A stretch of DNA of 64,000 nucleotides, from contig JAJRUZ010000008.1 of NCBI GenBank assembly GCA_024277525.1, positions 20,091 through 84,090 of the forward strand, in the 5' to 3' direction. A program made the position numbers and the translations under genes. How positions within the stretch are numbered: the first letter of the stretch is position 1; each line of letters opens with the position of its first letter. The notes below the pieces were generated by a model, which was not told the origin of the DNA, made no database searches, and was given only the letters and a program-made list of their open reading frames with translations. The DNA is from a candidate division WOR-3 bacterium (lineage in GTDB: Bacteria; Hydrothermota; Hydrothermia; Hydrothermales; JAJRUZ01). Positions 6,600 through 44,318 of the stretch are shown here, piece by piece.

Positions 6600-7432
6600 A
6601 TCTCTATTGTAATTATTTTTTTAATCCACAATGCAGCAATTAAGTCAAGTAAAAAAGCAACAAAGAGCATTATTATCCCCACTATGGTTTCCAGCATGGG
6701 GGCAAAAAGTTCGGGTTGCATGAGCCTCAAAAGAATTAAAAGAAAAAGGGGAAGAAGTGTTAAAACGATTGCTGATAATTTACCTTCAGCGGTAAGTGTA
6801 TCTATTCTTCTTTTAAGTCTTCTTCTTGCTTTTATCGTATCAGCAATACCTGATAAAACATCAACAAGTGAACCGCCCGTTTTTCTCTGCAAAAGAACTG
6901 CACTTGTAAAAATTTTAAGCTCCCTTGAGGGAATTCTATCTTGTAAATGTGAAAGTGCTTCATCAAGCGGGACACCGAGGGAAACCTCATCAAGCACCCT
7001 CTTGAATTCCGTAGAAATCGGATTAGGCATCTGTTGTGTTACAATTTTCAAACAGTGACTGAAACCGAGTCCTGCCTTTAATCCACTCACAATCAACCTT
7101 AAAGCCTCCTCAAGCTGGTCATTAAACTTTTCTATCCATTTATTCCTTATTGTATAAGCATATTGAGGGAAAAATGCTATTATAACTATTGCTCCGAGAG
7201 CTATAATAAATATTTTCATTCCCAAACCCTTTCCGAGAAACAAATAAGTCAAAATCGCAAATCCGAATAAAGCACGCAATTCAAGTAAAATAAAATTTTT
7301 AACGGGGTAATCCGATGGTTCAAGTTTTTTAGCAATACTTTTTATATAATAAATGAAAAAGTCCTCCAAGAAAATTATTATCATGTATATAGCAAATATT
7401 ATTGAAAGAATTATTAATACAATCTTCACCAT
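6596..7432 (-). CDS. tadB: Tight-adherence protein TadB (T2SS-F domain).
   Basis: 278-aa membrane protein with a T2SSF-like domain, directly downstream of the CpaF ATPase. Confidence 0.6.
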   Translation of the reverse strand: MVKIVLIILSIIFAIYMIIIFLEDFFIYYIKSIAKKLEPSDYPVKNFILLELRALFGFAILTYLFLGKGLGMKIFIIALGAIVIIAFFPQYAYTIRNKWIEKFNDQLEEALRLIVSGLKAGLGFSHCLKIVTQQMPNPISTEFKRVLDEVSLGVPLDEALSHLQDRIPSRELKIFTSAVLLQRKTGGSLVDVLSGIADTIKARRRLKRRIDTLTAEGKLSAIVLTLLPLFLLILLRLMQPELFAPMLETIVGIIMLFVAFLLDLIAALWIKKIITIEI

Positions 7433-9618
7433 ACCTTTTCCTCCACTCCCTTATAATATATATCCTGCGGGATTTTAAGACCTTTAATCTCAAACTCTTC
7501 ATGAACTTTCGGTCTTATCCCTGCTCCGACAAATTTCCCTATTATCTCACCCTTTTCACTCACCCCCTCCTGTTTGAAATAGAATATGTCTTGCATTGTA
7601 ATAATATTTCCTTCCATTCCCGTAATTTCGGAAATTTTTGTTACCCTTCTTTTTCCATCCCTCATTCTTTGAGTAAATACTATAAAGTCAATTGCTGATG
7701 CAATATAATTCCTTATTGCTGAGACAGGTAATTCGGTTCCTGCCATCAAAACCATTGTCTCCAGTCTTGAAAGTGTATCACGTGGAGAATTAGCGTGAAC
7801 CGTGGTTAATGAACCTTCGTGACCGGTATTCATTGCCTGAAGCATGTCAAGTGCCTCACCTCCTCTACACTCACCCACAATTATTCTATCCGGTCTCATC
7901 CTCAAACAGTTTTTTACAAGGTCCCTTATCGTAATCTCACCTTTGCCTTCAATATTAGGGGGCCTTGCTTCGAGTCTTACAACATGAGGTTGCTGTAATC
8001 TTAATTCTGCGGTATCTTCAACCGTCACAATTCTTTCATCTTCCGGTATAAAAGAGGATAAAACATTTAAAAGGGTTGTTTTACCGGAGCCTGTTCCACC
8101 TGCCACAATTATATTCTTCTTTGCTATAACACATGCCTTTAAAAACTCAACCATAAAATCGGCAATAGAGCCAAAATTTATAAGATCCTGATAGGAAAAA
8201 GGCTCTTTTCTGAATTTTCTTATGGTTATTGTAGGACCATCGATTGATACAGGGGGCAAAGTGATATTTACCCTTGAGCCATCAGGCAATCTTGCATCAC
8301 ATAAGGGATTTGCCTCATCAACCCTTCTTCCTATCGGTGATACAATTCTTTCTATCACAAGGCGCAACTGTGTCTCATTAAAGAATTTTCTATCGGTTAA
8401 ATAAATCTTCCCTCTTTTCTCTACATAAATTTTGTCCACCGCATTAACCATTATTTCGGTAATTTCAGGGTCTGCAAGCAGGTCTTCAAGCGGTCCGAGC
8501 CCCAGTATCTCCTTTATCATATCCTCTACAAATTTTTTCCTCACTTCCTGTGTAGGAAAAGGAATATCAAATTCGTCAAGTTTCTCTATAATGAGCCGTT
8601 CAACCTTTTTTCTTATTTCCTCTTTTTGAGCAGGAGAATCTACGGTTGCGGACAATTCGCCTGAAAGGGTCATCTCCTTTATTATATGAGCATGAATGAG
8701 TCCTTTAATCTCATGCGGAACTTCCTCCAGCTTTTCTTCAATCTCTATTTTGGCTTTTTCCATTAATTTTTCTTTTCTCTCATCAATAATTTCCTCCTTC
8801 TTTTCTTCTTCTTTTACCTCTTTTTCCTCTTTTTTCTTTCTCCTGAAAATTGAGAAGAAGTCTTTTTTGGTTTCTTTCCTTTTTCTTAAAATATCCTCCC
8901 TTTTTATTTCTCCTTCAATAAACTTGCAGATCTCTTTTATTTTTTCTTTAAAAACAGAGGAGAGTTTATCCTTACCTGCATCAAAGCCCAGGTCCACAAT
9001 CTGATTCACACTCTCGTCTTCGGGTAAAATAAAAAGTGCTTCTTTCTCAATAATTTCTTCAATTTCATTTAAAGGAATCCCTTCTTCTTTGTAAGAATTT
9101 ATGATAAATTCAATCTTCTGAGGGGGGTAATACCTCAATTTAAATACTTCTCTCAAATTTTTGGATTGTGCTATGGATAAAAAGTCATTTTTTAAAACAA
9201 CAAAAATGGTATCGGTAATATCAAGGAAATTCAAAACTTTTTCATCAACAATATGACCGCAGTCAAAGATTACATATTCATAATCATTTTCAACTTTTTT
9301 CAAAAAAGGGGGAACCATTTCATATTCCTTATCCCAGTTTTCTCCTGTTTTTGAAAATATAAGATGAAGTTTTGATGGATAAGAAGAATAAGGATAAATA
9401 TATTCTCCTCTGAATTTCTTATCTTTTTTAAAGGATGAAAGGGCTTCCCTTAAAGTTTTCCTTATTTCTGCTCCGAAAATGTAAGATAAATCTCCGTGAT
9501 TCTCTGCTTCAATTAAAAGGACATTTTTTTTATTCTGAGCCAATTCATACGACACAAGTGAGGCTAAGATTGATGTTCCGACACCTCCTTTTGTGCCAAT
9601 AAATGCAAATCTTTTCAT
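7426..9618 (-). CDS. cpaEF: Fused CpaE/TadZ-like ParA-type ATPase (N-terminal) and CpaF/TadA secretion ATPase (C-terminal).
   Basis: The N-terminus has the deviant Walker A of MinD/ParA/CpaE (FIGTKGGVGTS). A K/E-rich linker follows. The C-terminus has the VirB11/CpaF core: Walker A GGTGSGKTT, RLEARPPNIEGKGEITIRDLVKNCLRMRPDRIIVGECRG, and TGHEGSLTTVHANS. Confidence 0.8.
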   Translation of the reverse strand: MKRFAFIGTKGGVGTSILASLVSYELAQNKKNVLLIEAENHGDLSYIFGAEIRKTLREALSSFKKDKKFRGEYIYPYSSYPSKLHLIFSKTGENWDKEYEMVPPFLKKVENDYEYVIFDCGHIVDEKVLNFLDITDTIFVVLKNDFLSIAQSKNLREVFKLRYYPPQKIEFIINSYKEEGIPLNEIEEIIEKEALFILPEDESVNQIVDLGFDAGKDKLSSVFKEKIKEICKFIEGEIKREDILRKRKETKKDFFSIFRRKKKEEKEVKEEEKKEEIIDERKEKLMEKAKIEIEEKLEEVPHEIKGLIHAHIIKEMTLSGELSATVDSPAQKEEIRKKVERLIIEKLDEFDIPFPTQEVRKKFVEDMIKEILGLGPLEDLLADPEITEIMVNAVDKIYVEKRGKIYLTDRKFFNETQLRLVIERIVSPIGRRVDEANPLCDARLPDGSRVNITLPPVSIDGPTITIRKFRKEPFSYQDLINFGSIADFMVEFLKACVIAKKNIIVAGGTGSGKTTLLNVLSSFIPEDERIVTVEDTAELRLQQPHVVRLEARPPNIEGKGEITIRDLVKNCLRMRPDRIIVGECRGGEALDMLQAMNTGHEGSLTTVHANSPRDTLSRLETMVLMAGTELPVSAIRNYIASAIDFIVFTQRMRDGKRRVTKISEITGMEGNIITMQDIFYFKQEGVSEKGEIIGKFVGAGIRPKVHEEFEIKGLKIPQDIYYKGVEEKVW

Positions 9619-9622: not shown

Positions 9623-10921
9623 TCATTGTGTTTCTTTTAAGGTTTCAAGTACATAAAAATCATTTGTATAAGGATCCCAGAAGGCTTCAAGTCCTATACT
9701 TTCAAAAAAGGAGAAAGGAACATAGATTACCCCGTTTTCAACCTTTACTTCTGGTCTTATAGGATAAGCAACTCCGTCTCTTTCTATGGTAGAAGTTTCA
9801 ACGGAAAGATAAGTTTTCTTTTTCCCGAATTTAACCTCTGCCAGCTTTCCTTCCTCAACCCATTCATAGTCAATATTCAGTCTTTCTTTAAAGACCTTTG
9901 AGAGCTCAAAGTAAATTGTTCCATCAAAGGATTTGGTAGGAATATAGAAATCTTCCCTCTTCTCACCCCTGAAAATATGAATCTCTGCCGCCCCCCTTTC
10001 ATAAGGGATTACATAAGGTGTAACTATAAATACTAAGTCTTTTATCACATCGTCGTGTTTTATTCTCGTAAAAAACAACTTTCCGAGTATAGGAATTTTA
10101 CCCAGAATAGGAATTGAGGAGCGAAACTCTTGTTTTGTTTTTTTAATGAGCCCGCCTATTAATATGCTTTCTCCCGGAAAAACCTTTACCTCAACTTTTG
10201 CGTTATTTTTTCTTATTGCAGGAACAATGTATCCCCCGAAATTGACAGCATTTGTCCAATCAAGGTCAGAAACTTCTGGTTCAAGGTCCAACACAATGTG
10301 CCCCTCATCATCAAGCTTAGCCTTCAATTTCAACTTCACACCGTACTCCTTCCATTCTATACTTGCGGTTCCCATTGCTTGAGCTGTAATAATCGGTATT
10401 TCTCCGCCACTCAAAAATTCGGATGTTTTATCTTCAAGGACTACCAATGTAGGGTGTGATAAAATCTTAAGAAACCCTTTCTCTTCAAGAAAATGTAAGG
10501 TGCTTGAAAGATTGGTAATTCTTTTAATAGGACCTATATCAAGGGGATAAGTTTGAGGAATATTACCTTCTTCAAACCCTAATTCTTTCATCCAGTCCCA
10601 TCCATAGTCGCTATTATATGTCCTTTCCACCTCCAGGACCCACACATCCGCTCTTATTGTTTTAGGCTGGTAGAATTGGAGAGGGTCCCTTTTTTTAATT
10701 ACACATTCAATTTCCTGTTCTCCTTTATCCGTGAAAATAATTATATTTGTAACACCTTCCTTCATCGCATTAAGTAATACTTCCCTATCTGAAAGAAGAC
10801 GCATTCCCAGAATATCAGGATTACCTACTGCTACACTCTTTACAGGTCTTACAAATTTCAAAAGTTTGGAATATCCCTCATGTAAAAGGAGATAAGAGAA
10901 TAAGAAAATTTTAAGTATCAT
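9623..10921 (-). CDS. cpaC: Secretin (CpaC/RcpA family) with a C-terminal extension.
   Basis: Conserved secretin C-domain motif (SSIPILGKIPILGKLF...DLVFIVTPYVI) and an N-terminal signal. Confidence 0.75.
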   Translation of the reverse strand: MILKIFLFSYLLLHEGYSKLLKFVRPVKSVAVGNPDILGMRLLSDREVLLNAMKEGVTNIIIFTDKGEQEIECVIKKRDPLQFYQPKTIRADVWVLEVERTYNSDYGWDWMKELGFEEGNIPQTYPLDIGPIKRITNLSSTLHFLEEKGFLKILSHPTLVVLEDKTSEFLSGGEIPIITAQAMGTASIEWKEYGVKLKLKAKLDDEGHIVLDLEPEVSDLDWTNAVNFGGYIVPAIRKNNAKVEVKVFPGESILIGGLIKKTKQEFRSSIPILGKIPILGKLFFTRIKHDDVIKDLVFIVTPYVIPYERGAAEIHIFRGEKREDFYIPTKSFDGTIYFELSKVFKERLNIDYEWVEEGKLAEVKFGKKKTYLSVETSTIERDGVAYPIRPEVKVENGVIYVPFSFFESIGLEAFWDPYTNDFYVLETLKETQ

Positions 10922-11304
10922 TTTTCCTTAGCTTTTTCAAGATAGAAGCTGACAGAAACATTCTGCACCGCATTCACTTCTTTTGTGGTCTCTTTATATC
11001 CAGGAGCTATAAATTTTAATCGATACCTTCCGGGAGACAAAGTAATTTTACCCTTCCCGTTTTTAAAGGTATAAGGAGGTAAAGGGGAACCCACAATTAT
11101 TACTTTTACATCTTTCACAGGGTCAAAAGTTTTGGCATCCAGTAATTCAATTTCAAGAGAAACTCTTTTTACTTCGGGTTTTGCAGTTTCTGTGATTGTT
11201 TCTGTTGCTTCATATGTTCTGTATGGATCCTCCTCGGGGTTGTAATAGAAACAACCCCAGGATAATAGGATTATTAAAGGTAATAATTTTAAAGTTTTCA
11301 TCAT
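10918..11304 (-). CDS. Lipoprotein, first gene of the tad operon; Ig/carboxypeptidase-regulatory-like fold.
   Basis: Signal peptide plus lipobox-like LLSWGC; a GGAGG RBS immediately upstream. Confidence 0.4.
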   Translation of the reverse strand: MMKTLKLLPLIILLSWGCFYYNPEEDPYRTYEATETITETAKPEVKRVSLEIELLDAKTFDPVKDVKVIIVGSPLPPYTFKNGKGKITLSPGRYRLKFIAPGYKETTKEVNAVQNVSVSFYLEKAKEK

Positions 11305-11383
11305 TCCTCCCTCTTTTTAATAAGTCTTAAATTTTAAAAAAAATTTCCAAAAAAGTCAAATAAAAAAATTTTTTTTCTTAAAC

Positions 11384-11412
11384 TTGAAATTTTGAAAAAA
11401 AAATATTATAAT
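11384..11412 (+). promoter_or_regulatory. Near-consensus sigma70 promoter, TTGAAA-N17-TATAAT, for the ribosomal-protein operon.
   Basis: TTGAAA at 11384-11389 and TATAAT at 11407-11412 with a 17-bp spacer; the ATG of rpsQ is at 11445. The surrounding 140 bp is very AT-rich (UP-element-like). Confidence 0.45.
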
Positions 11413-11444
11413 AAAACTCCTTTAAAAAAAATTTAAAAAATCCC

Positions 11445-11720
11445 ATGCGCGGAAAAAGGAAGGAACTTATCGGTGCGGTTGTTTCAAACAAGATGGATAA
11501 AACCGTCGTTGTGCTTGTTGAACGACGGGTTCGTCATCCATTGTATAAAAAGGAAATAAAAAAGAGGAAAAAATTTTATGCCCATGATGAAAATAATGAA
11601 TGCAGAATAGGTGATATTGTGCGAATAATGGAAACACGCCCCCTTTCAAAGCTCAAAAGATGGAGAGTTGTGGAAATATTAAAAAGGGCTCCGGGTTTTA
11701 GTGAGGAAAAAGAGAAATGA
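11445..11720 (+). CDS. rpsQ: 30S ribosomal protein S17.
   Basis: 91-aa protein with the conserved S17 core ([24 protein letters not shown]); first gene of the cluster. Confidence 0.9.
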
Positions 11721-12085
11721 TACAGCAGCAATCAAGACTTAAAATTGCTGATAATACCGGTGCACTTGAAGTTATGGTGATAAGGGTTTTGGGAGGAAGT
11801 GCAAGAAAATACGGTTCGGTAGGAGATATTTGCAGAGCAACTGTCAAAAAAATCGGAACAGGTTCACAGGTGAAGGAAGGAGAAAAGGTATGGGTCGTAA
11901 TTGTAAGAACAAAAAAGGAAATAAAAAGAAAAGACGGGTCCACAATAAGGTTTGATGACAATGCAGGGGTTATAATAGACCCTGCGGGTGAACCCAAGGG
12001 TACAAGGGTTTTCGGTCCTGTGGCAAGAGAATTAAGGGAAAAAAGATTTATGAAAATTGTTTCACTTGCTCCGGAGGTTTGGTGA
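11717..12085 (+). CDS. rplN: 50S ribosomal protein L14.
   Basis: [16 protein letters not shown]...IRFDDNA; overlaps the rpsQ stop by 4 nt. Confidence 0.95.
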
Positions 12086-12405
12086 TGGCTGCTAAGATTA
12101 AAAAAGGAGACCAGGTAATGGTGATTTCGGGTGATGATAAAGGGAAAATAGGAAAAGTTATAAAGGTCTTTCCGAAGAACCAAAGGGCTATTGTTGAAGG
12201 AGTCAATATTGTGAAAAGGCACAGAAGATTTGTAAGTGCTGACAGACCTCACGGAATAATTGAAATGCCTGCTCCTGTTCACATTTCAAACCTTGCTCTT
12301 GTTTGTCCGTCTTGTGGGAAAAGGACAAGGGTCGGGTTCAGATTCGAAGGAGATAAAAAAGTGAGATATTGTAAAAAATGCAATGACACGATAGATAAGG
12401 ATTGA
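12085..12405 (+). CDS. rplX: 50S ribosomal protein L24 with a C-terminal zinc-ribbon (CPSCG...CKKC) extension.
   Basis: [11 protein letters not shown]... KOW domain; the ATG overlaps the rplN TGA. Confidence 0.9.
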   Translation: MAAKIKKGDQVMVISGDDKGKIGKVIKVFPKNQRAIVEGVNIVKRHRRFVSADRPHGIIEMPAPVHISNLALVCPSCGKRTRVGFRFEGDKKVRYCKKCNDTIDKD

Positions 12406-12406
12406 T

Positions 12407-12976
12407 ATGGCGAGATTGCTTGAACATTATAAGAAAAATGTAATTCCGAAATTAATGAAAGAATTTAAATATAAAAATCCGTTTGAGGTCCCTAAAATAG
12501 AGAAAGTGGTTGTAAATGTAGGATACGGTGAAGCGGTAAATGATCCGAAATTAATAGAACTTGTTCAAAAAGAACTTGCTCAGATTACAGGACAATGGCC
12601 TTGTATAAGAAGGGCAAGAAAGCATGTTGCTGCATATAAGGTAAGAAAAGGAATGCCCATCGGTGTGAAGGTTACATTGAGGGGAAAAAGGGCTTACGAA
12701 TTCCTTGACAGAACAATAACATTTGCACTTCCGAGGGTAAGGGACTTCAGGGGATTAAAAAGAAATTCTTTTGATGGAAGAGGGAATTATAATTTCGGAC
12801 TCGAAGAACATATTGTTTTTCCGGAGGTGGATATAGATAAAGTGAAAGTTCAGTTCGGGATGGACATAGCAGTTGTAACTACTGCAAAAACCGATTATGA
12901 AGCATTAAGGTTACTTGAAGAACTCGGATTTCCGTTTGAAAGAAAAAAGGAGGTGAAAAGTGGCAAGAAAAGGTAA
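12407..12976 (+). CDS. rplE: 50S ribosomal protein L5.
   Basis: 189-aa protein with conserved L5 motifs ([29 protein letters not shown]). Confidence 0.95.
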
Positions 12977-13148
12977 ATTTATGAGATGGTTAATGTATGA
13001 ACCGAAATTTAAGGTCAGGTACAGGAACAGATGTAAGAGATGCGGAAGACCCAGGGGTTATATAAGGAAATTCGGTTTGTGCAGGATATGTTTCAGAGAA
13101 CTCGCTGTTCAGGGTTTGATTCCCGGTGTTAAAAAGGCAAGCTGGTAA
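12960..13148 (+). CDS. rpsZ: 30S ribosomal protein S14 type Z (zinc-binding); GTG start.
   Basis: 61 aa: [25 protein letters not shown]...GVKKASW. Confidence 0.9.
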
Positions 13149-13149
13149 A

Positions 13150-13545
13150 ATGGTAAATGATCCTATAGCGGACATGCTCATAAGAATAAAAAATGCTGTA
13201 ATGAGAAGAAAAGAGGAAGTTAAAGTACCCCATTCAAAGTTAAAAGAAAGAATTGCCCAGATTTTAAAGGATGAAGGATTTATTGAGGAATATAAAATTG
13301 CGGGAGAAGGTGTGAAAAAGGAAATAGTAATTCTTCCCAAGTACGACAATGAAGGGAATCCTGTTTTAACGGATGTAAGAAGGGTTTCAAAGCCGGGAAG
13401 AAGGATATATGTCAAAAAAGATAAAATTCCTTGGGTTAAAAACGGTACGGGAATTGCAATTATTTCCACCTCAAAGGGTGTTGTTACCGACAGGGAGGCA
13501 AGAAGATTAAAAGTGGGCGGTGAAGTCTTATGTGAGGTATGGTAA
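13150..13545 (+). CDS. rpsH: 30S ribosomal protein S8.
   Basis: MVNDPIADMLIRIKNA...; the internal start at 13150 fits better than the ORF-track start at 13126. Confidence 0.9.
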   Translation: MVNDPIADMLIRIKNAVMRRKEEVKVPHSKLKERIAQILKDEGFIEEYKIAGEGVKKEIVILPKYDNEGNPVLTDVRRVSKPGRRIYVKKDKIPWVKNGTGIAIISTSKGVVTDREARRLKVGGEVLCEVW

Positions 13546-13546
13546 A

Positions 13547-14098
13547 ATGAGTAAAATCGGCAAAAAACCGGTTTTGATTCCCGAGGGTGTAAATATAAGG
13601 CTTGAAGGGAGGAAACTGATCGTAAAAGGACCGAAAGGAGAACTTTCCCTTGAAATTCATCCTGAAATAGAACTTGAAATAGATGAAAAAGAAATAAGGG
13701 TTAAGAGAAAAAGTGATGAAAAGTTTGTCAGGGCAATGCACGGCACAACCAGATCCCTTATTAACAACATGATTAAAGGAGTAAAAGAGGGTTTTTACAA
13801 AGAGCTTCTTGTGGTGGGTACGGGATATAAGGCTGATTTAAGGGGAAGGGAGCTTATTCTTGATGTAGGGTATGCCGAACCTAAGAAATATATTTTGCCG
13901 GAGGGTATAAAGGCTGAGGTGAAAAAGGAAGGAGCAAATTTCAAAATCAGAATTGAGGGAATTGATAAGCAAAAAGTTGGACAAGTTGCTGCTGAGATAA
14001 GAAAAATCAGGGAGCCTGATTTATATAAAGGAAAAGGTATAAGATATGCTGATGAAGTGATTAAATTAAAACCGGGTAAAGCAGGAGTGGCAAAATAA
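13547..14098 (+). CDS. rplF: 50S ribosomal protein L6.
   Basis: [21 protein letters not shown]...; the start is internal to the listed ORF. Confidence 0.9.
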
Positions 14099-14475
14099 TG
14101 GAAAGGGAAGAAAAAGTATTAAGGAGAAAAAGAAGGCGTTTGAGAGTAAGAAAAAAGGTATTCGGAACACCTGACAGACCACGACTTTGTGTATATAAAT
14201 CTTTGAAGCACATATATGCACAAATTGTGATAGACCCCCCGCTCGGTCCTTGTAAGGTTCTAACAGGTGCTTCTACCCTTTCCCCTGAAATCAGAAATGA
14301 GGTCAAAAGATTAAAAGGGAAAATAGAGAAGGCAAAACTTGTAGGGAGATTAATAGCAGAAAAGGCTTTAAAATTAGGGATAAAAAAAGTGGTCTTTGAC
14401 AGAGCAGGATATAAGTATCACGGAAGAGTAAAGGCTTTGGCAGAGGGAGCAAGGGAGAAAGGACTTGAATTTTGA
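14098..14475 (+). CDS. rplR: 50S ribosomal protein L18.
   Basis: 125-aa protein with a basic N-terminus ([12 protein letters not shown]) and the conserved L18 C-terminus ([22 protein letters not shown]). Confidence 0.9.
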
Positions 14476-15620
14476 GAATATCTCTAATCTCACAGAATTT
14501 TGATAAATATTCAAATGGTGAATCGCGGACAAATTACGAAATAGCAAAATATCTCCTTTCAAAAGGGCATGAGGTGCATATTTACGCATATAAAATTGAA
14601 AAGGAACTCTTTGAAAAAGGCTCTAAAATTTACAAAGTACCTTTAATAATAGAAAGACCCGCTATTTTAAAAAGCATCATTTTTTTTCTATGGGTATCTT
14701 TGATTATAAGAATGAAAAAGAATAAATATGACATAATATATCAATCCGGACCATCGGCATTTGTATCTCATAATTTAAATGTGTGTCAGTTTTGCCATTC
14801 AGCATACAGAAAAAAAATATTGAAATTTAAATTTCCCATCCTAAGAAAAATTTATTATTACATTAATTATACAGTAGCATCTTTCATGGAAAAGATCGTT
14901 TATAAGAAAGCCAAAATAATAGTTGCTGTTTCAGAAAAAATAAAAAAAGAACTTATCAAGTACGTAAAAATAAAAAAAGATAGGATCGTAATAATACATA
15001 ACGGAGTGGATATTGAAAAGTTTACTCCCAAAAAAGCAAATGAAAAGTCGGTATTATGCAAAAAATTAAACATAAATGAGAATAAAAAAATATTTTTATT
15101 TGTAGGAGACTTGAATTCTCCGAGAAAAGGATTTTTAAATTTGATTAAGGTGTTTGAAGATTTGGAGGAAAATTGCATTTTATTAGCTCTGGGAAAATAT
15201 GAAAGGGGTATTTTTCATAAATTAGTGGAAAAAAAGAATTTAAAAAGAAAAATTATTTTTCTCGGTTTTCAAAAAGATACCCCCTTTTTTTACAGATCAG
15301 CAGATTTTATGATATTTCCTACTTTTTATGACCCTTGTCCGCTTGTTGTTATGGAATCTCTTGCAAGCGGTACCCCCTGTATTGTATCACATTCACGATA
15401 CTGCGGCAGCACCGAAATTATAGAAGACAAAAAAGAAGGCTTTATAATAAAAAATCCTCATAATATAGAAGAAATAAAAGAAAAAATTAATTATGCAATA
15501 ACTTTAAACAAGAGAGAATATTTAAAGATGTGCTTTAATGCCCGTAAAAAAGCTGAAAATTTTTCTTGGAATAAAATCATCGAAAAATATTACAAAACAT
15601 TGTTATCAAGAAAATGTTAA
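14472..15620 (+). CDS. Glycosyltransferase family 4 (GT-B). TTG start overlapping the rplR stop (TTGA).
   Basis: The N-terminus resembles GT4 ([10 protein letters not shown]...[24 protein letters not shown]). The C-terminal EX7E-type region reads [22 protein letters not shown]. Confidence 0.8.
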
Positions 15621-15621: not shown

Positions 15622-18258
15622 TTATATCACCACCTCTTTCTTTCTGGGATAAAGTTTTCCATATACCTTCTCCACATCATCCACAATTATCAAAATAAGT
15701 GCCTCCTTGTTTTCCGCAAGTTGAAAAGCACAGAAAATTGCCTCTTCTTCATCATCCATTATAAAAATCCTATCCTCACTTACTCCCTTTTCTTTAAGCA
15801 CATTTTTCATCATAAGCGGAACTTCTTTCGGCTTTCTTCCCCTTAAATCCCAATCATCCCTTATCACAAAATAATGAACATCAGAATTACCGGCAATTTC
15901 TGCCATCTTTCTTATATCAATATTCCTCCTATCTCCCGGTGCTCCTATTACCGCAATCTTAAACTCATAAGGAAGTGAATTAATTAAACTGAATATCATC
16001 TCATAAGCCTTCGGATTATGAGCATAATCAAGAATAATCTTCCATTTACCGATGGAAATGAAATTGGCTCTTCCGGGATTTTCATGAAAAGAGGAATGAA
16101 ATGTCCTTAATCCCTCTGCTATGGTCTCCAGGGGAACGCCGAGAAGATAAGTAATAAGAGAAGCAGCAAGAGCATTTTCTATATTAAACATTGCCCTTCC
16201 TTCAAAAGCACTCGGAATTTCACTTATATTTATTACCGGTATCCTCAAATCCCCTTTACAAAGGCATATTGTATCTCCGTCAAGAAGCATTCCTATTCCC
16301 CCTATTTGAAGATGTTTCTCAAAAAACTCATTTCTTTTCAAGCAAAAATAAGCCGGTTTTGCTATTGTATTTTTATGAAGATTTCTTACAACCTCATCAC
16401 ATGCATTTAAAACAGCAAAACCTTCTTTTTTAACAGCCTCTATGACCACGGATTTAACTTCAGCCATTTCTTCAACCGTTTCAATACCCCTTAAACCGAG
16501 ATGGTCCTCCGAGACATTTAAAACACACCCTATATCAGCATAATCATATCCCAGCCCTTCCCTTAAAATTCCTCCTCTCGCTGTTTCAAAAACCGCAACT
16601 TCAACAGATGGGTCCTTTAAGACAACTTTTGCGCTCCACGGACCTGTTGTATCTCCTTTAACAATCCTTTCATTACCTATGTAAATTCCCTCTGTTGTTG
16701 TAAAACCTACCTTCTTACCCGAAATTCTCAATATATGGGAGACCATTCTCACTGTTGTCGTTTTTCCATTCGTTCCTGTTATTGAAACAATCGGAATTCT
16801 CGAAGGTACCCCCGGAGGAAATAACATATCCAGGACGAACACTGCAACATTTCTGCTTTTTCCTTTTGACGGATAAAGATGCATTCTGAATCCGGGAGCA
16901 GCATTTACTTCAACAACTTTCCCTTTTATTTCATGAAGGGGCTTTGTTATATCCTTACAGATAAAATCAATACCCGCTATATCAAGCCCTGTTATCCTTG
17001 CAACCCTTTCTGCAAGTCTTAAATTTGAAGGATGGGCTATATCGGTAACATCTTCCGCTTCTCCACCTGTTGAAAGATTGGCTGATGTCTTTAAATAAAG
17101 AATCTCACCTTTCGGAAGAACAGAATCAAGGGTGTAACCCTTTCTTTTTAATATTTCATGAGTAATTTCATCTATTTTAATTTTTGTTAAAGGTTTCTCA
17201 TGTCCTATTCCCCTTCTTTCATCGCTGTTAATTTTTTCAACAAGTTCCCTTATTGTGCTTTTTCCATCTCCTATTACATGAGCAGGGGTTCTTCTGGCAC
17301 ATGCAACCGCCTTTCCGTTTATTACCAGAATTCTGTAATCTTCTCCTTCAACATGTTCTTCAATAATAACTTTTTTTGAATAATTCTTAGCATATTTGAA
17401 GGCTTCTTTTAATTCATCAAAGCTTCTTATATTGGTTGTGACTCCCTTTCCCTGATTTCCATCAAGGGGTTTGCAAACAACCGGAAACCCTATCTTTTCC
17501 GCAATCTCTTTTGCGGATTCGTAATCATAAACAACGCCTCCTTCGGGTACAGGAATTCCTGAATCTTTCAAAATCTTTTTTGTTATATCCTTATCACAGG
17601 CTATTTCAACAGCAATGTTTGATGTATTGTTCGTGGTTGTAGCCCATATTCTTTTGGAATATTTTCCGTATCCGAGTTGCACAAGATTTCCATCTTCCCA
17701 TAATCTAATAACAGGAATATTTCTTCTTTTTGCTTCATCAATTATTGATTGAGTCGAAGGACCGTATGCCCACTTTTCTCTTATCTCAAGTAATTCATTT
17801 ATATATGGTTTAATATCGGGAATCCCCCCGTCTATAATTTTTTCAACAATTTCAACAGCAAATTCTCCTGCTTTTTTACCTGCTTCTTCAACCACATAAG
17901 AGTAAATGATCTTATAAACACCTTTTTTCTTTTCACTTCTCGCCTTTCCGTATCCTGTTTCCATTTTAGCAAGACATTGAAGTTCAAGTGCAACATGCTC
18001 AACAACATGCCCCATCCATGTACCTTCTTCAACTCTTTTTAAAAACCCGCCCTCAAAGTCATAAGAACATCTATGGGAATAAAGAGTAGGAATTGTCTTC
18101 TCTATTCTCTCTTTAAAACCTTTTATTTTATTTGTGGGTTTATCTTCAAGTTCTCCTATATCAAGTGTCATACATATACAGGGTTTTCTTAAATGATAAA
18201 TATTCGGACCCCTGAAAGCCCTGATTTCAAGAATTTTCATATATTTAAACTTTTTCAT
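15622..18258 (-). CDS. cphA: Cyanophycin synthetase (ATP-grasp plus Mur-ligase domains).
   Basis: 878 aa. The N-terminal CphA-specific domain reads MKILEIRAFRGPNIY. An ATP-grasp core and a C-terminal Mur-ligase P-loop (ITGTNGKTTT) follow. It is adjacent to a cyanophycinase gene. Confidence 0.85.
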   Translation of the reverse strand: MKKFKYMKILEIRAFRGPNIYHLRKPCICMTLDIGELEDKPTNKIKGFKERIEKTIPTLYSHRCSYDFEGGFLKRVEEGTWMGHVVEHVALELQCLAKMETGYGKARSEKKKGVYKIIYSYVVEEAGKKAGEFAVEIVEKIIDGGIPDIKPYINELLEIREKWAYGPSTQSIIDEAKRRNIPVIRLWEDGNLVQLGYGKYSKRIWATTTNNTSNIAVEIACDKDITKKILKDSGIPVPEGGVVYDYESAKEIAEKIGFPVVCKPLDGNQGKGVTTNIRSFDELKEAFKYAKNYSKKVIIEEHVEGEDYRILVINGKAVACARRTPAHVIGDGKSTIRELVEKINSDERRGIGHEKPLTKIKIDEITHEILKRKGYTLDSVLPKGEILYLKTSANLSTGGEAEDVTDIAHPSNLRLAERVARITGLDIAGIDFICKDITKPLHEIKGKVVEVNAAPGFRMHLYPSKGKSRNVAVFVLDMLFPPGVPSRIPIVSITGTNGKTTTVRMVSHILRISGKKVGFTTTEGIYIGNERIVKGDTTGPWSAKVVLKDPSVEVAVFETARGGILREGLGYDYADIGCVLNVSEDHLGLRGIETVEEMAEVKSVVIEAVKKEGFAVLNACDEVVRNLHKNTIAKPAYFCLKRNEFFEKHLQIGGIGMLLDGDTICLCKGDLRIPVINISEIPSAFEGRAMFNIENALAASLITYLLGVPLETIAEGLRTFHSSFHENPGRANFISIGKWKIILDYAHNPKAYEMIFSLINSLPYEFKIAVIGAPGDRRNIDIRKMAEIAGNSDVHYFVIRDDWDLRGRKPKEVPLMMKNVLKEKGVSEDRIFIMDDEEEAIFCAFQLAENKEALILIIVDDVEKVYGKLYPRKKEVVI

Positions 18259-19034
18259 ACTTTTATTACTTTCCTATTTTTTAAATCATATTCTCCTTCT
18301 GGAGAGAGAATATGAATTTTAACATTTTCCACCCCGAAGGGTCTTCCTGGTCTTAACCCGGAAATATTTGTCTTTTTTATGTCTCTTCCGTCAATAACCG
18401 TAACAACGCCTCTGCCCACAACTTCAAAAAAATCTCCTTTCACAAAAATTGCAGTATCTTCTGAAAGTCCTATACCTAAAACAGAGGGATTTGACACAAC
18501 AACCTGAATCAACCTCAAAAGCCTTCTTCTCCTGTGAAAATGAGTATCAATCACTATATCTTTTAAAAGACCAAGACCTTTTGTAAGTTCTACTTTCCCT
18601 TTAAACGCACCTTTATCAGCAGAGCCTTCATAAATCATCAAATCACCCATAAATGCAGCGCCCGCACTTGTTCCTATTATCATAACATCTCTTTTTTTCA
18701 AATTTTTAAGCACATCAAAAATCTTTGTTCCACCCAGCATTGTGGTTAATTTAAGTTGATTCCCCCCTGTAAAAAATATAATCTCCGCTTTTTCTATATG
18801 TCTTTCCAATTTTTTAACATTCAACCTATCCCTTTCAGAAGGAGCAAGGAAACTTATAAGATTTTTAATTCCGTATTTTTTAAATATCTCCGCATAATGA
18901 AAATATGTATCAAAGGGAACACTTGAAGCATAAGGAATTATAAGAACTTCCCCTCCTTTATAATTTTCTGCAATTTTTTTCAGTATGGGGGAATCTTTTT
19001 TTAAATTTCCGCCAATTAAAATAAGATTTTTCAT
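18255..19034 (-). CDS. cphB: Cyanophycinase (peptidase S51).
   Basis: 259-aa S51 fold with Ser-nucleophile context (GTSAGAAFMG); overlaps the cphA start by 4 nt. Confidence 0.8.
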   Translation of the reverse strand: MKNLILIGGNLKKDSPILKKIAENYKGGEVLIIPYASSVPFDTYFHYAEIFKKYGIKNLISFLAPSERDRLNVKKLERHIEKAEIIFFTGGNQLKLTTMLGGTKIFDVLKNLKKRDVMIIGTSAGAAFMGDLMIYEGSADKGAFKGKVELTKGLGLLKDIVIDTHFHRRRRLLRLIQVVVSNPSVLGIGLSEDTAIFVKGDFFEVVGRGVVTVIDGRDIKKTNISGLRPGRPFGVENVKIHILSPEGEYDLKNRKVIKV

Positions 19035-19611: not shown

Positions 19612-20448
19612 TTAATAGACAAATATTCTCGTTTTCCTTATATGATCAAGCCCGAGAAGGTACTTTACCATTCTTTCAATTCCCAGTCCGAATCCTGCTG
19701 AAGGTTTTAATTTCCTTTCCTTTGCATATTCAAGATATTCTTTAAAGAGGGAGAGGGGAAGTCCTTTCCTTTTTATTCTATCCACAATACGTTCATATTC
19801 GTACTCTCTTTCACCACCTGAAAGTCCTTCCCCGAATCCGAAAGGATAAATCAGATCATAATCAAGAAGAATTCCGTATCTTTGAGGGTCTTCCCTATCA
19901 TAGAACTCTCTTTCTTCCTCCAAGAAATCAACCAAAAAATAAGGTTCCTTTATACTTTGGGATAAATTTAGCATGTTTCCGTATTTTTCCTTCATTTCTT
20001 TCACACTTATTCTTTTAAAAGGCTTTTCAGGCACAGGTACTTTTATGAGTTGCGGATATTTTTCTTTAAGATTTCTTATGATATATATTACAAGGTCTTC
20101 TATAAATTCCATTACCTTTTCTTTTGTTACATTTCGCATCTCTACATCCAATTGAACAAACTCAACAAGATGATGAGGGGACTCTTTTTCTATTCTTATA
20201 TTTGGAGAAACTATGAATATTTTTTCAAAATAGTTCATCAGTATCTGTTTTTGAAAGATCATGCTTGTTGTGAGGAAGTACTCTTTATCATAAATTTTAG
20301 TTTTAGCATATTTTGTTTCAAGCAATGGATCAGAGAGTCTTGTGAGAATGAGGGGGAGGATTTCAACAAAACCTCTTTCCAGCAAGAAATCCCTTGCCTC
20401 TTTTAATACCCCTGAACAAATAAGGGTACTTTTTAATTTTTCATCCAT
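19612..20448 (-). CDS. Class-II aaRS-like catalytic-core protein (archaeal-type asparagine synthetase A / AsnRS-like paralog).
   Basis: 278 aa with class II motif-2/3-like segments (FQKQILMNYFEKIFIVSPNIRIEKE; SAGFGLGIERMVKYLLG). There is no anticodon-binding domain. Confidence 0.55.
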   Translation of the reverse strand: MDEKLKSTLICSGVLKEARDFLLERGFVEILPLILTRLSDPLLETKYAKTKIYDKEYFLTTSMIFQKQILMNYFEKIFIVSPNIRIEKESPHHLVEFVQLDVEMRNVTKEKVMEFIEDLVIYIIRNLKEKYPQLIKVPVPEKPFKRISVKEMKEKYGNMLNLSQSIKEPYFLVDFLEEEREFYDREDPQRYGILLDYDLIYPFGFGEGLSGGEREYEYERIVDRIKRKGLPLSLFKEYLEYAKERKLKPSAGFGLGIERMVKYLLGLDHIRKTRIFVY

Positions 20449-29586: not shown

Positions 29587-29664
29587 GTCTATTGCGTTTA
29601 TAAATAGGCGAGAAAAGCGAGAAAGGCGGGAAACGCGAGACGCGTCTATTGCGTTTTTCATTTG
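29587..29664 (+). repeat. Compact copy of the same element: GTCTATTGCG, TTTATAAATAG, GCGAGAAAA, GCGAGAAAG, GCGGGAAAC, GCGAGACGC, GTCTATTGCG.
   Basis: Direct reading; it abuts the 3' end of the wecA-like gene. Confidence 0.85.
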
Positions 29665-30710
29665 AGATTTTTTAACTCTTCCTGTTTCTGGTAAGGGAAT
29701 TTTTCGAATATTCTTATGAGAATTAAGCCTGTTATGATTATTAAGGCAAAAATTGTATAGGAAATCCAGAATTCCACCCTGTAAATAAATACTGAAAACA
29801 TTCCACCCAAAAATCCCAGAAAATACATTAAAAGAACCGTTGTTTTCTGGCTTAAGGAAAGATTGTATAATCTGTGATGCACATGGTCTTTTCCGGGATG
29901 TAAAAAGGGAATTAGTCCTCTTTTTGCTCTTGAAATTGTTATTAAACTTGTGTCAAATATCGGAACAATAAGTATTAAAATCGGTATCATCCATCGTGTC
30001 AAAACAGGTAAAGTTTCCGAATTTGCAACTCTTAATCCAAGGGCAGCAAGTAAAAATCCCAGAAATATTGCTCCTGAATCTCCGAGAAAGATTTTTGCAG
30101 GATGAAAATTATAAATAAGGAATCCAAGGGAGGCTCCCATGAGTGCAAGGGAAAGGGTTATAAGAATAATATCTCCTGTTTTTAATCCGAAAACAAAATA
30201 AAAGGTTGAAGCAATCACTGCAATACCTGAAGAAAGTCCATCCATTCCGTCAAGAAGGTTATATGCAGCGGTTATTCCAACAACCCAGAAAATTGTGAAT
30301 AAGTAATTTAAAATTGAAACATTAAAAATTTTTAAATGAAGGTTAAAAAATATCAAAATTAATCCTGCAATGGGCATACCCACCATCAATTTTATCTGGG
30401 GATGAATTTTCCCCATATCATCAAAAAGTCCTATCACAAGAAGCATAACAGCACATCCGAAAATAACAAAGAGTTCTTTATTGAAAGGATTATGAAAAAA
30501 CAAAGGAAAAATACCCGCAATAACACCAAAAAATACAGCAACACTGCCGAGGAGGGGAATGGGAGTTTTGTGGATTTTTCGGGGATTGTCAGGATGGTCA
30601 TAGATTTTGAAATGGATGGCAATACTTTTTACCACAGGAACAAGAATTAAACTTGTCAGAAAAGACAGAATAAGAGAAATCATATTCATATTCATATTTA
30701 TATTATTCAA
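29658..30710 (-). CDS. wecA: UDP-HexNAc:undecaprenyl-phosphate HexNAc-1-P transferase (WecA/MraY-type polyprenyl-phosphate glycosyl-1-P transferase).
   Basis: 350 aa with 10-11 TM helices and MraY/WecA loop motifs (DDMGKIHP, NLLDGMDGL). Confidence 0.7.
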   Translation of the reverse strand: MNNINMNMNMISLILSFLTSLILVPVVKSIAIHFKIYDHPDNPRKIHKTPIPLLGSVAVFFGVIAGIFPLFFHNPFNKELFVIFGCAVMLLVIGLFDDMGKIHPQIKLMVGMPIAGLILIFFNLHLKIFNVSILNYLFTIFWVVGITAAYNLLDGMDGLSSGIAVIASTFYFVFGLKTGDIILITLSLALMGASLGFLIYNFHPAKIFLGDSGAIFLGFLLAALGLRVANSETLPVLTRWMIPILILIVPIFDTSLITISRAKRGLIPFLHPGKDHVHHRLYNLSLSQKTTVLLMYFLGFLGGMFSVFIYRVEFWISYTIFALIIITGLILIRIFEKFPYQKQEELKNLK

Positions 30711-31813
30711 TTCTTGGTAAAAAGTTTAAAAATTTTTTCATATTTTGAAATTACCTTTTCCCAACTATAAACCTTTTTCACTCTTTCAATTACCTTTTTT
30801 TCTATATCTTCTAAAAACTTCCCATTTTTTTCTAAATGTTCGATTTTTGATAATAAATCTTTTTCTTTCTTTGTAAAACTAAATCCACAATTTTCTATAA
30901 CTTCAAGATTATAAGGCACCTTCAGAACTATGGGACATTTCCCAGCAGCCATTGCCTCTAATAAGGCGGGATTTGTTCCCCCTGCTTCATGACCGTGTAT
31001 ATAACAATATGCATTTCTTAGGATTACTTTATAATCTTCTCCATACACAGCTCCCAGAAATTTAATTTTATGATTTGCCATTCTTTTAAGTTTGTTTTTA
31101 TATTCAATACTATGAGGTGTGTCCCCAATAATCACGAGTTTTTTCTCACCCTTATACTTAATGAATTCTCTAACCGTAATATGAGGGTTATTTTCAGGTT
31201 CAATACGACATACCTGAAGAAAATATTCTCTCGGCTTTAAACCATATTTTTTTAAAACTTCCAGATCTTTACCACTGGAATTATTATTTATATCTGCTCC
31301 ATAGGGAATATATACAGGTTCTTTTTTATATTTTCTTTTAAAATATTTTTTTACGGCTTTTGAATCAGCGATTATTATATGACAAAAAACGCTGGCTAAA
31401 GCCTCAGAAAGTCTCAAAAAGAAAGAGGCAATTTTTGACCACTTCGGTCTCTTCCATTCTATTCCGTCAACATTTATTATTATTTTTTTACCCAGCAATC
31501 GCGGAAGCCAGCATAAAAGAACAGGAGAAACACCCAGTAAAAGGAGCACTTTATTTTTAGAAAATGATGCATGGATAACTGATAAAAATGAAGTAGAAAC
31601 CTTTTCCAGAAATTTCACATTAATTGAAGGAAGCCATATTCTTTTGACTTCAGGGAAATATTTATCTTTTTCAGGATTTCGATACTTCTTAAGACCATAC
31701 ACTGTAAACTCATATCCTTTATCTTTTAAACCCAGAACAAGTTTATTTACAAATGTTTCAAACCCTCCGTAACTTACAAGAAACCCTCTTGAACCAATAA
31801 TGGCTATCTTCAT
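30707..31813 (-). CDS. Glycosyltransferase, GT-B fold (DUF1972-type N-terminus: IAIIGSRG...YGGFETFV).
   Basis: N-terminal motif characteristic of the DUF1972/GT1-like family; a GT-B C-terminal domain. Confidence 0.6.
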   Translation of the reverse strand: MKIAIIGSRGFLVSYGGFETFVNKLVLGLKDKGYEFTVYGLKKYRNPEKDKYFPEVKRIWLPSINVKFLEKVSTSFLSVIHASFSKNKVLLLLGVSPVLLCWLPRLLGKKIIINVDGIEWKRPKWSKIASFFLRLSEALASVFCHIIIADSKAVKKYFKRKYKKEPVYIPYGADINNNSSGKDLEVLKKYGLKPREYFLQVCRIEPENNPHITVREFIKYKGEKKLVIIGDTPHSIEYKNKLKRMANHKIKFLGAVYGEDYKVILRNAYCYIHGHEAGGTNPALLEAMAAGKCPIVLKVPYNLEVIENCGFSFTKKEKDLLSKIEHLEKNGKFLEDIEKKVIERVKKVYSWEKVISKYEKIFKLFTKN

Positions 31814-32991
31814 TTATTTCTCCTCTTATGCAATTTTATTGCTTTTTCATAAATTTCCATAAGCATTTTATAATTTTTTTCAGGAGTATACTTTTCTTCA
31901 TATTCTTTTCTCGCATTCCTCGCCATCCTTTCCCTTTCCTCAGGGTGATTCCATAACCACAAAACTTTTTCAGCAAGGTCTTTAGGATTTCCGGGTTCAA
32001 AAAGTAAACCTGTTTCACCATGTTTTACAAGGTATTTAAGTGAGCCAATTCTTGAGGCTATAACTGGTGTACCACATTGAAAAGCTTCAATTAAAGTCAG
32101 AGGGAATCCCTCATACCAAATAGAGGGCATAATTAGAACTTTTGCTTTTTTAATGATTTTTAATAAATTTACTTTTGATTTAAAACCCAAATATGATACA
32201 TTATGTGGTAAATAAGTTTTTATTTCTTCTGACAACGGACCACTTCCTACAATTTTTAAAGTGATGTTATTAATAAAAGAAAAAGCTTTTAATAACACTT
32301 TAATGCCCTTTTCTTCAGATATTCTACCAGAGAATACTATATAATTATCTTTCTTAAAGGAAGGAGTTATAGAATCATCTAAAAAATTAGGTTTTACAGT
32401 AATTTTAGAAGAAGGTATCCCAAATTCTATGAATTTTTCCTTAGCAAATTTTGATAGAACAATATAATAAGAGGGCAAAGCAAAATAATTATTTAATTTA
32501 ATCTTTCGTAGCATAGCATAAACAGGCAGCGATTTTAAATAGGAATTTTGAAAACATTTATGCAATAATGAAAAGTATTCATTTTTTTGTGGGCATAATT
32601 CACATACATGACCTTTTCTAAATAGAAAAGCACTGGAACAGAACAATCTGAAATCATGTAAAGTATGAACAAAAGGAACTTTTTTTTCTTTTAAAGCCTT
32701 ATAGATAGAGATAGAAAAAAATGGAAATAGATTATGAATATGAACTATATCAAATTTTTCTTTTTCAAGCAATTTTTTCAATTCTTGGTAGCTGTTTCTT
32801 GACCACGGAATATTTAACGCGAATCTAATTTTTTGTTTTAAATTCATATTCTCAATAAGGTCATTTTCTTTGTAAAACAGCTTTACATAATGTCCTTTGC
32901 TTGAAAGTAACCTCACTTCATTTTTCACCACAGTATCATCACCGCTTGGAGCACCTCTCCTGTGAAAGTTATGTATTACAAGAATTTTCAT
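31810..32991 (-). CDS. Glycosyltransferase family 4.
   Basis: GT-B C-terminus (EGFPLTLIEAFQCGTPVIAS). Confidence 0.7.
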   Translation of the reverse strand: MKILVIHNFHRRGAPSGDDTVVKNEVRLLSSKGHYVKLFYKENDLIENMNLKQKIRFALNIPWSRNSYQELKKLLEKEKFDIVHIHNLFPFFSISIYKALKEKKVPFVHTLHDFRLFCSSAFLFRKGHVCELCPQKNEYFSLLHKCFQNSYLKSLPVYAMLRKIKLNNYFALPSYYIVLSKFAKEKFIEFGIPSSKITVKPNFLDDSITPSFKKDNYIVFSGRISEEKGIKVLLKAFSFINNITLKIVGSGPLSEEIKTYLPHNVSYLGFKSKVNLLKIIKKAKVLIMPSIWYEGFPLTLIEAFQCGTPVIASRIGSLKYLVKHGETGLLFEPGNPKDLAEKVLWLWNHPEERERMARNARKEYEEKYTPEKNYKMLMEIYEKAIKLHKRRNK

Positions 32992-35317: not shown

Positions 35318-36485
35318 TTATATAAAGTATTGAAAACACTAACGCTAATATAAACCAAAATATTCTCATTGTGAATAAACTCAACGTCACACCTCCAAGG
35401 AGAAGATTATAATAAGCTAATCTCACAGAATCCAAATTTTTTTTCTCTCTGGTAACAAGTTCCTTTAAAGGATAAAAGAAAAAAAATAATATTGCAAAAC
35501 CAAGAGGTAATCCCATAAAAGTTATAACCTCTAAATATAAATTATGCGGGATATAAAGCCCTTTTACTCAAATTTCTTCTCCACCTATCCCTATTCCTAA
35601 AGGGAACTGAAAAATTAATGTAAGATAGTATCTCCACAATATTGCTCGTGAATCCGCAAATATTTGTGCCTTTGATAATCGTTCCAAAATTAAATTAATT
35701 TGTTCTTTTGTAAAAGGAATGAACATTAATATCAAAATACCAGATAATAAAAACAGATTAATTAAAAAATATATATTTTTTTTTCTTAATTTCATTTTAA
35801 CATTAAAAAAAGACCTTGCACCAAAATAAATTATACTAAAAAATAAAATAATCAACCCTGTCCTGGAATATGTAAAAATAATAATCCCCGTGGTGAATGA
35901 TAACAGTATCAATCTCAAAATAAAAGACAATTCTTCAATATACAAAACCATAGAAAAAATTAATACCATATATAGAGCCAAATAGTTAGGATCAGAAAAA
36001 GATAAAATCAGTCTTTTTTTCCAGGGATTCCATTCGAATATTTCTAACTTAAAAAGAAAAGGTATAGCTAAAGTAGAGAAAAAACTATAAAGAAACCATT
36101 TTTGTATCTTGATAGGTGTAAGCATTCTCATTTTAACTAAAAATAAAATTTCAAAAAAAAGAAGCAATGAAATAAAAAATCTACCTGAATGAACCATAAG
36201 GCGGAAAAAAGAGTTGATATTGGAATAGAAATTCGAATGCATTAATAAAAGAAACATATTATAAATTACAAGAAAAGTAAAAAAAATAATAATTTTAAAT
36301 ATAATACCCCCAACGGGTATATACTTATACTTTTTATAATACACTAAAATAAAAACAAATATCAAGAAAAAAAGAGAAACAATGAAAACATCGCTAATTT
36401 TAAATATTAAAATATTAAATTCATCTCTTCTAAGGGGTAAAGTTAAAATAATAAAAAAAAGAGCAAAATTAATAATCTTTTTCAT
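35298..36485 (-). pseudogene. wzy: O-antigen polymerase/ligase-family (Wzy-like) membrane protein interrupted by a single in-frame TGA at 35568-35570.
   Basis: ORFs 35568..36485 and 35298..35516 are in the same frame, with 17 sense codons between them. Multiple TM helices; the IGIGGEE region is typical of Wzy_C. Confidence 0.5.
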
Positions 36486-37843: not shown

Positions 37844-37853
37844 AAGGTTTAAA

Positions 37854-43075: not shown

Positions 43076-43077
43076 TT

Positions 43078-44316: not shown

Positions 44317-44318
44317 TT

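Follow-up and report, generated by a model that had tools for sequence, protein, structure and literature searches.

An S17-to-L18 ribosomal protein unit, separated from the rest of the S10-spc-alpha cluster, is typical of a thermophilic WOR-3 clade

In Escherichia coli, ribosomal protein S17 belongs to the S10 operon, and the spc operon comprises rplN to rpmJ, with autoregulation by S8 acting at the start of rplE. The canonical bacterial S10-spc-alpha ribosomal protein cluster was reportedly treated by Coenye and Vandamme in 2005. More recently it has been treated by Brandis 2019/2021 (PMC6735719, PMC8046335), and in the 2021 study 65% of cluster rearrangements separated whole operons, and spc and alpha were joined in all 204 genomes analysed (PMC8046335). 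Here we analysed a 64,000 nucleotide stretch of DNA (hereafter the window; contig JAJRUZ010000008.1 of assembly GCA_024277525.1, positions 20,091 to 84,090 of the forward strand) from a candidate division WOR-3 bacterium, in which the genes from rpsQ (S17) to rplR (L18) form a unit of their own, followed by a gene for a GT4 glycosyltransferase. This operon variant is real, undescribed and typical of its lineage, and it is rare among bacteria generally; in the papers on WOR-3, Hydrothermia and Caldipriscus that were searched we found no mention of this gene order.

Eight consecutive ribosomal protein genes on the plus strand occupy positions 11445-14475, all of them far above the Pfam gathering scores (E-values 1e-24 to 1e-50), and they stand in the same internal order as in Caldanaerobacter and more than 70 other loci. 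In the canonical cluster L16-L29 stand just before S17 and S5-L30-L15-secY just after L18, whereas in the window a divergent pilus operon takes the former place and the GT4 gene with a convergent cphA takes the latter. When the canonical cluster of Caldanaerobacter (locus L031) was used as the tblastn reference set, from which L30 was absent, the whole 64 kb gave no match to L2, S19, L22, S3, L16, L29, S5, L15 or SecY, nor to Adk, Map, IF1, L36, S13, S11, S4, RpoA or L17. An earlier note on this DNA, made from the letters alone, had read the locus as eight genes from S17 to L18 with a convergent cphA downstream and with S5, L15, SecY, L29, L16 and S3 missing, and the Pfam and tblastn results agree with it on each of these points. 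It had also called the fragmentation of the operon unusual, which is supported by a survey of the 80 species-representative genome loci, from many phyla, that are most similar in L18. S5 stood directly after L18 in 71 of the 74 loci with enough flanking sequence, and L29/L16 directly before S17 in 56 of 58; all exceptions belong to the clade of the window.

The same S17-to-L18 unit, with identical boundaries, was found in QZM1.Bin.43 (L004), Ca. Hydrothermus pacificus JdFR-72 (L005), QZM1.Bin.7 (L008), GCA_039803905.1 and GCA_039803825.1 (L169 and L170, metagenome-assembled genomes (MAGs) of the JBDRZ series at NCBI), Logan run assemblies (L171-L175) and GCA_039630235.1, a 'Ca. Hydrothermales' genome (L176), and these represent at least six independent assemblies of a low-GC (31-35%) clade. 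The pilus operon is the upstream neighbour of S17 in L008, L169-L173 and L176; its junction with S17 recurs in L008, L169-L171, L173 and L176, and the L18-GT4 junction in L169-L174. The closest L18 loci come from WOR-3/Hydrothermota MAGs. The loci of the split type have a GC content of 30-35%, with 32% in the window, as against 41-42% in the canonical WOR-3 relatives, and a neighbour-joining tree of S14, S8, L6 and L18 placed the window with L176, L169 and L008, then with L004 and L005, in a clade that is sister to canonical WOR-3. The source of the window is a thermophile of low GC content in candidate phylum WOR-3 (class Hydrothermia, 'Hydrothermales'-like clade), and the split layout is normal for this small thermophilic clade and ancestral to it, not peculiar to one genome. 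The earlier note had said that relatives showing the arrangement as ancestral in the whole lineage would make it lineage-typical rather than noteworthy here, and this is what the relatives show.

Further ribosomal genes of the clade were found in two other units. An S5 profile scan of metagenomes gave the low-GC loci L098-L101, and an S5 search then gave a tight protein cluster (P0001-P0006); the resulting unit, def-fmt-DUF2905-S5-L30-L15-secY-adk-map-infA-L35, was present in L098-L101 and L161-L168, and the contigs of the protein cluster all have genes for an M23 peptidase, a Tricorn-like protein and yajC, in this order, ahead of def, and queD and queE after L35. In L161-L168, L100 and L101 (for example L161:14278-15761) infA is followed by rpmI (L35) and queD-queE, not by L36-S13-S11-S4-rpoA-L17, and L13-S9-S2-tsf-pyrH lie upstream on the opposite strand. 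Contigs with the S10 unit (L180-L184) were reached through an L16 search, and they carry S12-S7-EF-G-EF-Tu-S10-L3-L4-L23-L2-S19-L22-S3-L16-L29 followed by mreB-mreC-(mreD)-pbp2-rodA, with L29 overlapping mreB by 17 nt in two species (L180-L183 and L184; for example L180:10417-15433). One other L16 candidate, P0295, belonged to an unrelated canonical lineage and was discarded. The three units are exactly complementary, one ending at L29, one running from S17 to L18 and one beginning at S5, which argues for a split of the cluster and not for a duplication. They also occur together in the same assemblies: in GCA_039630235.1 contig 5 (125 kb) carries the S17-L18 unit and contig 6 (123 kb) the S5 unit, in CBFGJR01 (QZM1.Bin.7) contig 212 (L008) carries S17-L18 and contig 190 (L184) S10...L29-mreB, and the runs SRR27730046 and SRR21619491 each give one contig with S17-L18-GT4 and one with S5. 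The word 'truncated', which the earlier note applied to the unit, is therefore misleading, since nothing has been lost and the complementary units lie elsewhere in the genomes of the relatives.

We consider it highly probable that an ancestral split of the S10-spc-alpha supercluster, combined with incidental read-through into the GT4 gene, explains this locus. In the ancestor of the clade, the str-S10-spc-alpha supercluster would have been cut between L29 and S17, between L18 and S5, and again after infA, so that L36-S13-S11-S4-rpoA-L17 would have to occupy a further place. The S17-L18 unit would then be driven by a sigma-70-type promoter of its own just before S17, as its match to the consensus and its conservation suggest, and any gene that happened to follow L18 would receive read-through transcription. 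Compaction of the genome may have packed that gene against L18 until start and stop codons overlapped, and in the window that gene is a WaaG-like GT4 gene, whose TTG start is weak and whose AAGGA ribosome-binding site is modest. Several points weigh against this history. The tree was built from 564 columns and carries no support values; all the relatives are MAGs, so that links within an assembly depend on correct binning; the L36-S13-S11-S4-rpoA-L17 piece was not located, and in this clade it does not follow infA; and the positions of S5, L16 and the rest in the window's own genome are inferred from the relatives. Moreover, the adjacency of L18 and GT4, with overlapping frames, has been kept in two species, with 79% identity between their L6 proteins, which leaves some room for selection on the linkage. 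As to how the cuts arose, a model in which mreB once stood after L17, and excision of S17...L17 brought L29 and mreB together, was not supported, as canonical WOR-3 loci have no mreB in the roughly 3 kb that follow L17.

The S17-L18 unit appears to be transcribed independently from a conserved sigma-70-type promoter just upstream of S17. The spacer ahead of S17 is A/T-rich and 140 nt long, and it holds the top promoter-like site of the 10.8-16.2 kb region, with 11 of 12 consensus matches, at the place where the earlier note had put a promoter after the divergent pilus operon. Promoter-like sites are no more numerous in the region than expected by chance (14, against 15.7 after shuffling), and the call is based on the 11/12 match together with conservation. 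In L008, L169 and L176 the block ACTTGAA...TATAAT is present ahead of S17 in two tandem copies, of which the promoter-proximal one aligns with the block of the window and the second lies further upstream, and L004 and L005 have TTGACT-N17-TATAAT at the equivalent position. That the block was conserved while the rest of the spacers drifted supports a real promoter. S17 lacks a Shine-Dalgarno sequence and is preceded by an A-rich leader of about 25 nt (upstream sequence, 11413-11444), and it lacks one also in L008, L169 and L176; in these three loci no more than about 13-22 nt separate the -10 box and the S17 ATG, so that the leader would be about 6-15 nt, and L004 and L005 have a GAGGG or GAGAA motif before S17. 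All later genes of the unit, GT4 included, have a Shine-Dalgarno sequence, embedded in the preceding gene. In the window, tRNA scans and Rfam at gathering thresholds gave no matches, and thus no known ribosomal-protein leader. Such leaders are narrowly distributed according to PMC3616713, so the Rfam negative says little.

The features of the locus are collected in Table 1, and for several genes the likely start lies inside the open reading frame. The rplX frame is open from a TTG at 12079, with GGAGG placed 6 nt before the likely ATG; the rpsH frame is open from 13126, with homology beginning at the likely ATG; and the rplF frame is open from 13520, with a 183-aa protein (P0121) that is 100% identical to the reading from the likely ATG. 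The start of rpsN is a GTG with AAGGAGGTG directly upstream. The C-terminal half of L24 carries a CxxC...CxxC treble-clef zinc ribbon.

Table 1. Features of the S17-L18 locus and its boundaries (window positions)
Feature	Position	Strand	Evidence
Promoter of S17-L18 unit, sigma-70-type (predicted)	11384..11412	+	-35 TTGAAA (11384-11389), 17-nt spacer, -10 TATAAT (11407-11412)
rpsQ (S17), opening gene of unit	11445..11720	+	Pfam Ribosomal_S17, E=7.5e-36; NCBIfam equivalog uS17_bact, cut-off exceeded
rplN (L14)	11717..12085	+	Pfam Ribosomal_L14, E=3.7e-49; ATG overlaps S17 stop (ATGA)
rplX (L24)	12085..12405	+	Pfam ribosomal_L24, KOW, zf_Tbcl_2; likely start ATG 12085
rplE (L5)	12407..12976	+	Pfam Ribosomal_L5, Ribosomal_L5_C
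rpsN (S14), short zinc-binding type, 62 aa	12960..13148	+	Pfam Ribosomal_S14, E=2.4e-26
rpsH (S8)	13150..13545	+	Pfam Ribosomal_S8, E=3e-50; likely start ATG 13150
rplF (L6)	13547..14098	+	Pfam Ribosomal_L6; likely start ATG 13547
rplR (L18), closing ribosomal gene of unit, no S5 after	14098..14475	+	Pfam Ribosomal_L18p, E=2.7e-41; NCBIfam equivalog L18_bact, cut-off exceeded
GT4 glycosyltransferase (GT-B fold), WaaG-like	14472..15620	+	Pfam Glycos_transf_1 and Glyco_transf_4
cphA (cyanophycin synthetase), 3' boundary of unit	15622..18258	-	Pfam Cyanophycin_syn, Mur_ligase_M/C, ATP-grasp
Promoter-like site towards divergent pilus operon	11331..11359	-	TTGACT, 17-nt spacer, TAAAAT; 10/12 matches, consensus scan
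First gene of divergent Tad-like pilus operon, 128 aa, CarboxypepD_reg-like; 5' boundary of unit	10918..11304	-	Pfam

The frame of the GT4 gene contains a TGA at 14466-14468, which leaves the TTG at 14472 as its sole canonical start, and this TTG overlaps the L18 TGA (14473-14475) in the tetranucleotide TTGA (14472-14475), as the earlier note had said. The N-terminus read from it (...GHEVHIY) resembles that of a genuine GT4 protein, and 8 nt ahead of the TTG stands AAAGGA. The terminator scan found no terminator between L18 and GT4 and no intrinsic terminator between GT4 and cphA, and the sole same-strand promoter-like site near the L18-GT4 junction is weak (9/12) and lies inside rplF, at 13978-14007, about 465 nt upstream. 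Because no terminator intervenes between L18 and GT4 or follows GT4, co-transcription of GT4 with the unit is likely on sequence grounds, and the overlap of stop and start codons without a terminator between them is of the kind expected where translation of two genes may be coupled. Given its TTG start and only modest AAGGA site, GT4 is probably translated far less than the ribosomal proteins are. The encoded protein has an N-terminal Glyco_transf_4 and a C-terminal Glycos_transf_1 domain, both above gathering scores, and its best solved-structure match, over the full length, was RfaG/WaaG of E. coli (2iv7, E=2e-17), with which it shares the two-domain GT-B architecture. WaaG is the lipopolysaccharide (LPS) core glucosyltransferase I, whereas the gene of the window adjoins L18 and cphA and not LPS-core genes, and no NCBIfam equivalog model reached its cut-off for the GT4 protein, so that it was not identified as WaaG.

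We consider it most likely that the link of GT4 to L18 is a by-product of rearrangement and genome compaction, and not a regulatory design, because four-base overlaps are the default in this genome, members of the clade differ in what follows L18, and GT4 has no specific assignment. Among 50 same-strand neighbour pairs in the window 24 overlap, 16 of them by exactly 4 nt, which is the commonest type of junction. GT4 follows L18 in the window and in L169-L174, where the counterpart is 49% identical, so that this order was found in one other species; in the L169 species the gene overlaps the end of L18 in a frame, relative to L18, that differs from that of the window. Aligned with L169, L008 (10378-10860) proves to have cleanly lost about 1.1 kb of the GT4 gene, of which 15 codons remain (LKFLFISHEFNNYSK*); as L008 also has a run of N some 470 nt beyond L18, an assembly effect is possible there. 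L008 had been considered as an ancestral state without GT4, a reading that was rejected because the alignment shows a deletion with a remnant. In L004 (10375-11397) and L005 (3449-4471) holB, for the delta' subunit of DNA polymerase III, follows L18, and in L176 a FIST-domain gene does so after a gap of 80 nt. In L004 and L005 holB starts at a TTG within the L18 stop context TTTTGA, the same four bases as in GT4 of the window. Of the coupling that the earlier note had proposed between a cell-envelope glycosyltransferase and ribosomal-protein expression, the overlap itself therefore stands, and a functional feature is weakly supported, given the frequency of four-base overlaps, the deletion in L008, the replacement by holB or the FIST gene and the single other species.

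An alternative to a merely incidental link is that envelope and growth genes, namely GT4 after L18 and mreBCD-pbp2-rodA after L29, were selected onto ribosomal operons so that envelope synthesis tracks growth. The adjacency of L18 and GT4 in two species, the 17-nt overlap of L29 and mreB in two species and the presence of mreB-mreC just after the broken end, S5, in the independently fragmented Caldipriscus clade all speak for such functional coupling. Nevertheless, we regard it as unlikely, as GT4 was cleanly deleted in the close relative L008, its slot is held by holB in L004 and L005 and by the FIST gene in L176, four-base overlaps are the usual junction here, GT4 is one of at least five such genes in the window with no assignable substrate, and coincidence could account for as few as two mreB cases. 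The position of mreB-mreC after broken ends in two clades could be a coincidence or could hint at a benefit from ribosomal operons, and the evidence is too thin to prefer a benefit. In its broadest form the idea would be that thermophilic WOR-3 bacteria repeatedly captured growth and envelope operons at the 3' ends of broken ribosomal operons (mreBCD-pbp2-rodA at L29, mreBC at S5, GT4 at L18), which we hold to be slightly more doubtful still; if true, such capture would hard-wire envelope expansion to ribosome output, with growth-rate coupling through a shared promoter replacing separate regulation.

Two further readings would make the unit something other than a piece of a split cluster, and we find both very improbable, the latter even more so than the former. 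The S17-L18 block might be an extra partial copy, duplicated or horizontally acquired, with a complete canonical cluster elsewhere. Nothing supports this directly, and what speaks for it is that the rest of the source genome was outside the comparison; on the other hand, the units of the relatives abut exactly, with L29 followed by mreB and not S17, S5 preceded by DUF2905 and not L18, and no gene duplicated, the proteins group with their WOR-3 relatives, and the GC content of the block matches that of its flanks. Alternatively, the arrangement could be an assembly artefact, a chimera joined near 11.3 kb or near 14.475 kb, a thought that gains a little from the window being probably from a MAG, as its relatives all are, and from the N-gap downstream in L008. 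However, both junctions recur across different projects, samples and assemblers, and neither shows a step in composition, so that a mis-join at 14475 or 11300, which the earlier note had said would refute its reading, is contradicted by the independent assemblies. We thus retain the ancestral split, with GT4 transcribed by incidental read-through, as the explanation of this locus.

The genes on both sides of the unit have features of their own. The divergent upstream operon is Tad/T2SS-like, with a secretin, a ParA-CpaF fusion ATPase and two T2SSF genes. In the ATPase (7426-9618, minus strand, 730 aa) an N-terminal ParA/MinD-like domain (AAA_31/CbiA) is fused to a CpaF/T2SSE ATPase, and the fusion is conserved in L008, L169 and L176. 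Downstream, cphA converges on GT4, with one base separating their stop codons; its 878-aa product is encoded together with an S51 cyanophycinase in an overlapping pair (15622-19034, minus strand), here in a thermophilic WOR-3 genome. A 278-aa protein encoded further on (19612-20448, minus strand) has the class II aminoacyl-tRNA synthetase core only (tRNA-synt_2), with no anticodon-binding domain, which suggests an EpmA/PoxA-type EF-P lysyl transferase rather than a true synthetase. The window holds at least five GT4 genes, and those other than the L18-linked one lie away from it in a large glycan cluster at 29.6-45 kb. This surface-glycan cluster (29658-45383, minus strand), which has a lower GC content (24-29%), comprises a WecA/MraY-like transferase, at least four GT4 genes, a GT2, a Wzy-like polymerase, a kinase-like protein and a phosphodiesterase, and was possibly gained by horizontal transfer.

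For the window itself, the S17-L18 unit is a real feature and an ordinary one for its lineage. Few gene arrangements of bacteria are as conserved as the S10-spc-alpha cluster, and this clade shows cuts within operons, into at least three or four units, that are stable across several species. Phylogenies and binning checks that assume one ribosomal block on one contig will misread these genomes as fragmented or incomplete. The clade also offers a natural case in which to study stoichiometric synthesis of ribosomal proteins in the absence of one long transcript, the origin of new promoters at break points, and any gain for non-ribosomal genes that come to lie at the broken ends.

Compared with the canonical S10-spc-alpha cluster, the unit keeps the same eight genes in the same order on one strand, with tight packing and with ribosome-binding sites within the preceding gene, and differs in that the cluster has been cut at L29/S17 and L18/S5 in the clade, that the middle piece has a predicted promoter to itself, and that non-ribosomal genes are joined to the ends left by the cuts. 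The E. coli spc operon shares with it the order L14-L24-L5-S14-S8-L6-L18, whereas the unit of the window begins with S17, ends at L18 without S5-L30-L15-secY-L36, and has its promoter upstream of rpsQ and not of rplN, with no ribosomal-protein leader found by Rfam. Because S17 is in the S10 operon of E. coli, both cuts fall inside operons, and 'spc-operon fragment', as the earlier note termed the unit, is imprecise. A parallel comes from Caldipriscus-type WOR-3 (L007, L009, L010, L012 and L107-L114), thermophiles of the same phylum in which the cluster is likewise cut inside operons and mreB-mreC stand at a broken end, directly after S5 or after an E2 acyltransferase gene (L009:10326-13901; L010, L012). 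There the cuts differ, giving rpoC / S14-S8-L6-L18-S5 / (E2) mreB at a GC content of 43-56%, with S14 directly following rpoC and with S12 through L5 missing before the S14-S8-L6-L18-S5 fragment and L30 onwards missing after it. Since the Caldipriscus type forms a separate clade in the tree, its fragmentation was probably independent, and the WOR-3 phylum appears to have broken the S10-spc-alpha cluster at least twice.

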